A DNA stretch of 64,000 nucleotides from an uncultured Methanosarcinales archaeon (GTDB taxonomy: Archaea > Nanobdellota > Nanobdellia > Woesearchaeales > ARS49), in the NCBI GenBank assembly GCA_964445485.1, contig CAYUPS010000001.1, forward strand, positions 76,941 through 140,940. The letters run 5' to 3'. The notes below the pieces were generated by a model that was not told the DNA's origin, did not search any database, and saw only the letters and a list, made by a program, of their open reading frames with translations. The number at the start of each line of letters is the position of its first letter. Position 1 is the first letter of the stretch. A program made the position numbers and the translations under genes. Below, in pieces: positions 51,537 through 52,814 of this stretch.

Positions 51537-52097
51537 TCAGGAGCAGCCGACGACGATGTCCACATAATATTTCGTCGCGCCGTAGAACTTCTGCACACGG
51601 CGCTTGTCCCAGATCTTGCAGGCCACGCTAGTGGCCGGATTCATCTGGCACCGGGGCGTGCCGCTCCGGAAGCCCAATTGCATGCAGGTTTTTGTGGAGA
51701 GGTTCCCGTCGCATACCTCGCCCGGGTCGAGCTTGCCGTTGCCGCAGGTCTGAAGAGGCTGCGGCGCCGAACCTGTGTAGCTTCCCCCTGCAGCGCTCAC
51801 CGGATTCTCGCAGGCTTTCTTGACAGGATTGCATATCTGGCTGCCAGGACAACGGCAGGACGGACTCGTCGTACCGCCGACATAGAGCGATGAGAGCGAG
51901 AGGCAGGAGATTCCCGCCTGGTTGTACGCGCATGAGGGAAGGCTGGCCGACGCAGAGGGGTTGTAGTTCGACGCATAATAATACGCATCATACCCCGCCT
52001 GGCCGACCTCCTGCGCAGTCATGAGCGCCCACGCGCCGATGAGGACCATGCCGGAGAGGATGAGGATATCCTGCCAAGGAAGCATGCGGCGGGCCAT
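51537..52097 (-). CDS. small secreted cysteine-rich protein carrying a single CGNGKLDPGEVCDGN repeat
   Basis: 186 aa; N-terminal signal/TM MARRMLPWQDILILSGMVLIGAWALMTA; TTTAAATA (52120-52127) ~26 nt upstream of ATG 52097. Confidence 0.6.
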   Translation of the reverse strand: MARRMLPWQDILILSGMVLIGAWALMTAQEVGQAGYDAYYYASNYNPSASASLPSCAYNQAGISCLSLSSLYVGGTTSPSCRCPGSQICNPVKKACENPVSAAGGSYTGSAPQPLQTCGNGKLDPGEVCDGNLSTKTCMQLGFRSGTPRCQMNPATSVACKIWDKRRVQKFYGATKYYVDIVVGCS

Positions 52098-52139
52098 AAG
52101 AAGGACCCAGACGGCCGCGTTTAAATATGTTGCGCCGAG

Positions 52140-52814
52140 TCAGCCAAGATCGATCGCGACCCGCGCGACGAGCGGTGGCCAATCATCAGCCGCGGCGTCC
52201 TGGACGGCGATGACAAAGGTTGTCTCGCCATAAGGCATGATGTCGATGTCCGCGTCAGGGCGTGCGATGCTTGAGAAATCAAGCAGGTATGTCGTCGCGA
52301 TGCCTTTGGCGACGCTGTCCGCGATGCCCATGATGCGTCCGAACGGGGCGTTGATCGTGGCTGAGGCGGAGCGCAAGGCCTGCGGCACTGCGCCGCCCGT
52401 GACGCTCGCCGTGATACTCACCGTTTCCGCACCCAGCGAGACTGTCGCTTGGGAGGGGGCATAGGCCAGGTCCATCAGGTCCATGCCTGCGACGCTGTCG
52501 ATGCAGGTCTTGAGCGCGGCGCCCGCATACCGTCTCAGTTCCGACTCCATGAACTGCTGCGAGGGCGCGACGCGGGCGCGGTTGCGGTAGTGGAACGCCA
52601 CCGTCGCACGCTCAGCGTAGAGCGCGTCACCGTGGCCGTAGATGAAGCCGCCGTTGCGCGCGAGCGTGTGCACGCCGGCTCGCATGGCATGCGCAAAACA
52701 TGAGGACACTTGATTGGTCGCGCTCGCCTGCGCGATCGCAATCCATGCGACGCTCGCGACAACCGCCGCAACTATTATGATGAGCATGATGAGCTTCATG
52801 GCGGGGGTTTTCAT
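52140..52814 (-). CDS. signal-peptide hypothetical protein translationally coupled to the giant protein
   Basis: ATG 52814 (M19 of track ORF) overlaps giant-gene stop (ATGA); N-term MKTPAMKLIMLIIIVAAVVASVAWIAIAQASA; no domain recognised. Confidence 0.6.
   Translation of the reverse strand: MKTPAMKLIMLIIIVAAVVASVAWIAIAQASATNQVSSCFAHAMRAGVHTLARNGGFIYGHGDALYAERATVAFHYRNRARVAPSQQFMESELRRYAGAALKTCIDSVAGMDLMDLAYAPSQATVSLGAETVSITASVTGGAVPQALRSASATINAPFGRIMGIADSVAKGIATTYLLDFSSIARPDADIDIMPYGETTFVIAVQDAAADDWPPLVARVAIDLG

Follow-up and report, generated by a model that had tools for sequence, protein, structure and literature searches.

Pairings of pilins with adhesins are already known, and so are polymorphic toxins. 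Large adhesin-like proteins and transglutaminase-family surface peptidases are frequent at the type IV pilus loci of archaea (PMC4858521; bioRxiv 10.64898/2026.04.22.720090), and transglutaminase-like surface peptidases have been linked genomically to pilins in archaea (PMC4858521). Here we analyzed a 64-kb stretch of archaeal contig CAYUPS010000001.1 (hereafter the window, within which all coordinates are given), focusing on a gene for a 224-amino-acid (aa) protein that overlaps the end of a gene for a giant protein. All genes of this locus lie on the minus strand. We find that the 224-aa protein belongs, as a short and divergent member, to an unnamed family of archaeal proteins that resemble type IV pilins, and that the conserved genomic partner of this family is a giant protein, predicted to be Sec-secreted, with a common trunk and interchangeable putative enzyme tips at its C-terminus. 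On balance, we consider it somewhat probable that the 224-aa protein acts as a pilin-like adaptor in the anchoring, export or display of a giant that is a polymorphic effector or adhesin.

The 224-aa gene (52140..52814, minus strand) has no match in Pfam or NCBIfam. A word-indexed protein search returned the protein itself only, and no relative was found when it was used as the sole query against GTDB species representatives. Of 1.84 billion cluster representatives scanned exhaustively with HMMER, 80 proved to be relatives at E<1e-3, 13 of them at E<1e-10, the best match to the 224-aa protein having an E value of 7e-17 and 28% identity. A typical relative is ~335 aa long. It begins with an N-terminus of the form M..K[KR][GA]Q[ILV][ST].F[IL]I.G, followed by a ~190-aa domain with two near-invariant cysteines and an invariant GG, and then by a C-terminal immunoglobulin (Ig)-like domain, assigned to Big_9 in 7 of the 29 members scanned. 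The motif [KR][GAS]Q[ILV][ST] stands directly before the hydrophobic stretch in 71 of 87 family sequences, a set comprising the results of the HMMER scan, further search hits and the window protein. Archaeal class III signals end in Gly with Gln at +1, as in the EppA substrates of Methanococcus (PMC3875500), so that the combination of motif and hydrophobic stretch points to a class III (prepilin) signal in the relatives. No match to a Pfam pilin family (PF04021/DUF361 type) was obtained for the 224-aa protein or for 29 scanned members of its family.

The N-terminal signal or anchor that the original prediction had read in the 224-aa protein is borne out by a single strongly hydrophobic segment at residues 9-27 (52734..52790, minus strand; Kyte-Doolittle 2.99), which aligns with the hydrophobic region retained from the class III signal peptides of the relatives. 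A confident AlphaFold2 (AF2) model places this segment inside a continuous helix spanning residues 4-53, and predicts the arrangement by which we recognize a pilin fold, an N-terminal alpha-helix of ~50 residues packed on a beta-sheet head. A single-sequence AF2 model with a predicted local distance difference test (pLDDT) score of 46.6 was not used. Foldseek found no significant match in the PDB. All invariant or near-invariant core residues of the family are retained (C39, G55, G56, Y74 and C104). The possibility that the 224-aa gene is a decaying pseudogene was ruled out by these intact residues and by the confident model. Signal, sequence conservation and modeled fold mark the family as pilin-like: a predicted class III signal leads into a long hydrophobic helix at the N-terminus, followed by an alpha/beta head stapled by a disulfide and, in most members, by an Ig domain. 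The copy in the window is an atypical member of the family.

We then compared the surroundings of family genes. Exact look-up and pattern scans of genome and metagenome contigs provided 28 related loci, one from a Candidatus Woesearchaeota metagenome-assembled genome and most from groundwater metagenomes, including some small-filter fractions, with GC contents of 30-57%. Nineteen loci were informative, being distinct and having sequence downstream of the family gene. At 18 of the 19, a same-strand open reading frame (ORF) of at least 595 aa begins -29 to +63 nucleotides (nt) from the stop of the family gene. These adjoining ORFs range from 595 to more than 2,100 aa, and 13 exceed 1,000 aa or run off the contig. 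An overlap between family gene and partner is typical, of either 8 nt (ATGnATAA) or 4 nt (ATGA), and a GGTGG/GGTGA element lies a short distance before it. The original prediction had named a family that occurs widely without large neighbors as a finding that would refute it; the opposite is seen, and the accessory or adhesin-partner role that it had named gains support from these abutting ORFs.

The partner proteins start with ordinary Sec signal peptides, and ten of them share a conserved region of ~600 aa, the trunk, while their C-termini are unrelated. One partner ends in a PT-HINT domain (locus L002; 47.2 bits, Pfam). At locus L026, which holds the closest relative of the 224-aa protein, the 1,709-aa partner carries RelA_SpoT at aa 1535-1660 and is followed after 3 nt by a gene for a 309-aa HD_4-type hydrolase (HD_4 at 23.5 bits, below the cut-off of 27.2). 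The whole module (1846-9062 of L026, and likewise in L027) consists of a 46-aa NikA-like ribbon-helix-helix gene, a 342-aa pilin-like gene, the 1,709-aa partner and the 309-aa hydrolase. A RelA_SpoT toxin next to an HD hydrolase is the arrangement of toxSAS toxin/antitoxin pairs, and the L026 module looks like an archaeal-type version of it, in which a putative secreted toxSAS-type toxin is accompanied by a hydrolase immunity gene. Co-occurrence with giants bearing a transglutaminase-like tip, proposed as a check of the original prediction, was found at locus L007, whose partner has the same tip as the giant of the window; the other partners carry PT-HINT, RelA_SpoT or unassigned tips. In at least two lineages, a tiny ribbon-helix-helix-like ORF lies immediately upstream of the family gene or overlaps it (L003 3547-3702; L026 1846-1986) and may regulate the module; the window shows no such ORF.

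In the window, the ORF of the giant (52811..64000, minus strand) runs for 3,729 codons without a stop and encodes at least 3,724 aa from an ATG at 63985. Because the frame is still open at the window edge, the N-terminus must lie beyond it. No Pfam family matched the giant at E<=0.01, and its portion inside the window has no strongly hydrophobic segment. A hidden Markov model (HMM) of five partner proteins matched aa 2373-2703 (55877..56869, minus strand) at 28.7 bits, compared with 4.7 bits for the best of 500 local shuffles, and the bona fide partner at L028 scores in the same range (27.8 bits). BLASTP by itself missed this homology, and HMMs were needed to see it. The trunk HMM matches the ten partners and the giant, and C-termini align between the giant and the L007 partner only. 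By profile comparison, the giant is homologous to the large proteins that partner the pilin-like family. It looks like a partner-type core of ~1,350 aa placed, as far as the sequence indicates, after at least 2,370 aa that include ~1,000 aa of Cys-rich modules. This repeat region (60146..63091, minus strand; ~aa 299-1280) consists of CGNGK..E.CD modules of the myxo_disulf_rpt/DUF4215 kind, seven of them strict and others weaker, and the giant has ~130 cysteines within aa 250-1500 as against 6 within aa 1500-3724.

The giant ends in a putative transglutaminase/papain-like Cys-His-Asp tip (aa 3456-3724; 52814..53620, minus strand) with the motifs DIGxxC..GGVCRH, HxWxEYI and DxAQ. The L007 partner contains two homologous tandem copies of this domain (phmmer, 42.2 and 26.1 bits), and in an alignment of the three copies GGVCRH, HxW[AS]EYI and [LM]DxAQ, together with DIGxxC before GGVCRH, are invariant. 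The transglutaminase-like nature initially ascribed to the C-terminus holds as far as conserved Cys, His and Asp motifs go, and found no backing in sequence databases: Pfam gave no match to the domain even at E<=10, NCBIfam and a plasmid tblastn search gave none, and searches of the PDB with the single sequence and with a profile returned chance matches only. A word-indexed protein search with the last 260 aa was also without a match. Membership of the transglutaminase/papain-like superfamily is plausible at the level of motifs only. The description of the giant as polymorphic-toxin-like likewise stands in part: the common trunk and variable tips lend it some support, and neither PT-HINT nor the RelA_SpoT and HD_4 pair was found in the giant of the window. 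As a separate observation, the C-terminal domain comes after a stretch at ~54055-54250 (giant aa ~3245-3310) that is rich in Gly and Ala and mildly hydrophobic (…ALLTGGAGMSFTGATGFGGALAGMAE…GILAGAGLPGAM…), and the L007 partner (5484-11519 of that locus) also has a Gly/Ala-rich segment before its first copy of the domain, which starts at aa 1349. These stretches are reminiscent of a glycine zipper, and membrane insertion might be their role.

At the junction of the two genes, the TGA of the giant (52813-52811) shares bases with the ATG of the 224-aa gene (52814-52812), forming the predicted 4-nt ATGA overlap (52811..52814, minus strand; plus-strand letters TCAT). A GGAGG Shine-Dalgarno-like element (52821..52825, minus strand) lies 6 nt upstream of this ATG within the last codons of the giant (junction GGAGGCGCACCATGA), and no AT-rich TATA run was found upstream of the ATG. 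The sequence is consistent with the translational coupling that had been proposed from the overlap. By itself, a 4-nt ATGA overlap is unremarkable in this genome, with at least three other ATGA junctions in the window (28337, 30459 and 20836). About 17 other start codons of the window are preceded, at 25-30 nt, by runs made of A and T only, which points to this as the usual promoter of the genome, with leaderless transcripts. Examples of such AT-only runs upstream of start codons are found at 11711-11718, 15409-15420, 16398-16404, 35023-35030, 38778-38788, 46474-46482, 52120-52128 and 50603-50609. The pattern points to mostly leaderless first genes of transcripts, with internal operon genes such as the 224-aa gene apparently carrying GGAGG instead.

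These observations can be arranged into a mechanism. The giant and the 224-aa gene would be transcribed together and translationally coupled, as the overlap, the internal GGAGG and the missing promoter suggest. The pilin-like protein would then sit in the membrane through its N-terminal helix or be built into a type IV filament or pseudopilus, where it could bind the conserved trunk of the giant and thereby bring about its export, anchoring or surface display. The Cys-rich repeats of the giant may serve adhesion, and its Cys-His-Asp tip may have a cell or an envelope as its target. A membrane-anchored or filament-integrated adaptor is, from the prepilin signal and the fold, the likeliest mechanism, and the published content of archaeal pilus loci fits this reading.

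Several points weigh against the adaptor reading. The 224-aa protein starts with MKTPAMKLIMLIII (MKTPAMKLIM...) and has no [KR][GA]Q; if aligned with the motif, it has Pro at -2 and Met at +1. It also lacks the Ig domain, as do other short members of the family (P0003, P0004, P0009, P0013 and P0086). The protein may be merely membrane-anchored or processed by signal peptidase I. The gene order in the window, giant and then family gene, is the reverse of that at all 18 related loci, and co-occurrence was counted starting from the family gene only, not from the partner. Finally, no gene for a type IV pilus ATPase, a TadC/platform protein or a prepilin peptidase was seen, either among the ~30 window ORFs scanned with Pfam, a subset of the ORFs, or in the existing gene calls of seven related loci (including L001-L003 and L026-L028). 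Stand-alone pilin genes are frequent in archaea, and missing machinery neighbors do not exclude pilin membership.

The original prediction had proposed that the 224-aa protein is an immunity protein which, exported or anchored outside the membrane, neutralizes the Cys-His-Asp tip of the giant and so protects the producer. Seen from the window only, the gene does stand where an immunity gene is classically found, right behind the tip and coupled to it in translation; its extracytoplasmic topology would suit an extracellular enzyme, and the partner family is polymorphic-toxin-like, with its PT-HINT tip and its RelA_SpoT tip followed by an HD hydrolase. Yet the family tracks the trunk and not the tip: it is kept across partners with unrelated tips (PT-HINT, RelA_SpoT, doubled Cys-His-Asp and unassigned), and its gene precedes that of the partner in 18 of 18 cases. 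At L007, the one other locus with the same tip, the family gene is again upstream and a different ORF of 110 aa lies downstream; identity to the 224-aa protein is 21% for the family protein of L007 and 24-25% for those whose partners bear other tips, so that a common tip goes with no greater similarity. The slot after the tip is filled at L026 by a recognizable immunity gene of the mechanistically matching type, HD_4, which is unrelated to the family, and neither a prepilin signal nor a pilin-like fold is a feature of immunity proteins. Together, these comparisons argue against immunity and for a conserved accessory role, and we consider that the 224-aa protein is very improbable as an immunity protein.

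The reversed gene order, unique among the 19 loci, could instead mean that the 224-aa gene is a displaced or orphaned copy. It would lead a second module of family gene and partner, whose partner was lost, was reduced to the 186-aa protein encoded downstream, or is a 970-aa protein from which a block of tRNA genes has cut it off; the overlap with the giant would then reflect tight packing. ATGA overlaps are common in this genome, the 224-aa protein no longer has a prepilin motif or an Ig domain, and two tRNA genes, typical sites of rearrangement, stand between the downstream genes for secreted Cys-rich proteins. Since the 5' end of the giant lies beyond the window, a canonical family gene may be located upstream of it, or the 224-aa gene may lead a second, eroded module. 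This is countered by the invariant core residues, all kept, and the confident AF2 model; by the Shine-Dalgarno element without a promoter of its own, from which the 224-aa gene appears to be expressed with the giant; and by the giant itself, which bears the partner trunk and a partner-type tip. In addition, neither the 186-aa nor the 970-aa protein is matched by the trunk HMM. We regard a displaced copy as unlikely. A further possibility is that the pilin-like protein is a substrate of the tip, the Cys-His-Asp domain processing or cross-linking it, for instance in place of prepilin-peptidase cleavage or to tether the giant to its anchor. Pilin processing has been proposed for the transglutaminase-family surface peptidases with a genomic link to type IV pilus loci in archaea (PMC4858521), the 224-aa protein is without a canonical cleavage motif, and the L007 partner with the same tip is also paired with a family gene. 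Most partners keep the family gene even though they have no Cys-His-Asp tip, however, and the tip is a putative enzyme. We give this possibility little credence. The pilin-like adaptor remains the reading that we favor.

Downstream of the 224-aa gene and separated from it by 42 bases, a 186-aa protein with a signal or anchor, seen as one hydrophobic N-terminal segment, is encoded by a separate transcription unit (51537..52097, minus strand). As had been predicted, it has a TATA box of its own, ATATTTAAA (52120..52128, minus strand), centered 27 nt upstream of the ATG at 52097; the sequence is consistent with a separate promoter, and the position of the box implies a probable leaderless transcript. 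The protein contains exactly one CGNGKLDPGEVCD module (aa 117-157; 51627..51749, minus strand), which an HMM built from seven modules of the giant matches at 29.9 bits; none of 1,000 shuffles exceeded 7.6 bits. Its match to TIGR02232 (16.0 bits, E 0.0076) is below the NCBIfam cut-off of 20.8. In agreement with its first description as a single-repeat mini-paralog, it is a small paralogue of the repeat region of the giant, has a promoter of its own and stands outside the coupled pair. Farther on, a gene for a secreted Cys-rich repeat protein of 970 aa (47668..50580, minus strand) has a TATA box 26 nt upstream of its ATG at 50580. This protein matches TIGR02232 above the cut-off (24.9 bits) and shares segments of 35-43% identity with the repeat region of the giant; it is a paralogue of the N-terminal repeats and a second, independently promoted member of the repeat family. 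Either protein was considered as the true partner of the pilin-like family, and both were ruled out because neither matches the trunk HMM.

The 186-aa and 970-aa genes are separated by a block (50615-51525) made of tRNA-Arg(TCG) on the minus strand, a YdeI/OmdA-DUF1905 gene (50802-51368) and tRNA-Pro(TGG) on the plus strand (51455..51525; Rfam), each tRNA having its own TATA run. The tRNA-Pro gene is convergent with the 186-aa gene and marks the end of the module. This tRNA-bracketed block between two genes for Cys-rich secreted proteins may be an insertion or a rearrangement point. Over the whole window, Rfam identified the two tRNAs and no other RNA family.

The window as a whole has a GC content of 61.8% and carries archaeal-type genes, including those for eIF2-gamma, ribosomal protein S19e, the NOG1 GTPase and STT3/AglB, and a large glycosyltransferase cluster. 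This surface-glycosylation cluster (12407-33463) comprises STT3/AglB, several GT4, GT2, PMT_2, a flippase-like Polysacc_synt, asparagine synthase, methyltransferases and UDP-glucose dehydrogenase, and would suit a heavily glycosylated envelope or glycosylated giant surface proteins. Two further observations concern other parts of the window. The region 10734-11740 is AT-rich and ORF-poor in a window of ~62% GC, with an AT-only run of 28 nt (10734-10761) and more at 10782-10794 and 11047-11060, and no Rfam match. The arginyl-tRNA synthetase ORF (42886-45273, plus strand) is listed with 795 aa; its Pfam domains start at aa 239, and a TATA run (43568-43576) lies 28 nt before an in-frame start at 43600. 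From the start of the domains and the TATA run, the gene is probably 557 aa long, which leaves ~700 nt upstream unexplained.

Little is known of how ultra-small, host-dependent archaea attach to their hosts and manipulate them, and most of their giant surface proteins lack annotation. The two-gene module described here, a pilin-like protein with a giant secreted protein whose enzyme tips can be swapped, is recurrent and has no Pfam or NCBIfam model. It is a concrete candidate for an attachment or effector-delivery apparatus of these archaea, and would extend the logic of polymorphic toxins to a pilin-coupled form in archaea. More tentatively, the module may represent an undescribed route in DPANN-type archaea, in which a pilin-like adaptor coupled to an effector gene docks the trunk on a type IV filament or pseudopilus for export or for display at the tip toward host cells; the window would then hold a high-GC variant fused to a ~1,300-aa Cys-rich adhesin array. 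Our literature searches found no pilin-like companion coupled to giant polymorphic proteins in DPANN-type archaea. The locus also carries a lesson for annotation, as a position behind a toxin tip does not by itself make a gene an immunity gene.

Among known systems, the closest analogy that we propose for the carrying or displaying of a partner is with the minor pilins of bacterial type IVa pili and their PilY1 tip adhesin, and with the GspI/J/K tip of type II secretion. The archaeal modules differ from these in having one pilin-like gene each, and their loci showed no gene for a pilus ATPase, platform or peptidase. The archaeal partner is unrelated to PilY1 and has no Pfam match, and the head of the pilin-like family is built from repeated alpha/beta units, with an Ig domain in most members and no cleavage motif in the 224-aa copy. 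The relatives resemble archaeal class III signal proteins, the substrates of EppA/PibD such as the Epd pilins of Methanococcus, in their short basic n-region ending in G or A, Gln at +1 and ~20 hydrophobic residues (PMC3875500), but the family lacks Glu at +5 and the 224-aa protein lacks the motif. The tip of the giant is similar to transglutaminase-like cysteine peptidases (Transglut_core, PF01841) in its ordered Cys...His...Asp, with GxC, HxWxE and D motifs in three domain copies; unlike them, it matches no profile or PDB sequence at any threshold tried. The CG[DN]G...E.CD modules of the giant, 970-aa and 186-aa proteins are like the Myxococcus cysteine-rich acidic repeat (TIGR02232) and DUF4215, although here the host is archaeal, the 186-aa protein is below the cut-off and the giant has no Pfam match at E<=0.01.

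Like polymorphic toxins such as CdiB/CdiA/CdiI, Rhs and MafB (PMC3482391), the partners have a conserved trunk and unrelated tips, one with a pretoxin HINT domain and one with RelA_SpoT followed by an HD hydrolase. The partners are putative toxins, and the conserved companion is pilin-like, not a TpsB transporter, VgrG/PAAR, WXG protein or chaperone. The word "pilin" is absent from the full text of the polymorphic-toxin survey of Zhang et al. 2012 (PMC3482391). Set against these systems, the 224-aa protein corresponds to the conserved companion of polymorphic toxins and not to the immunity gene.

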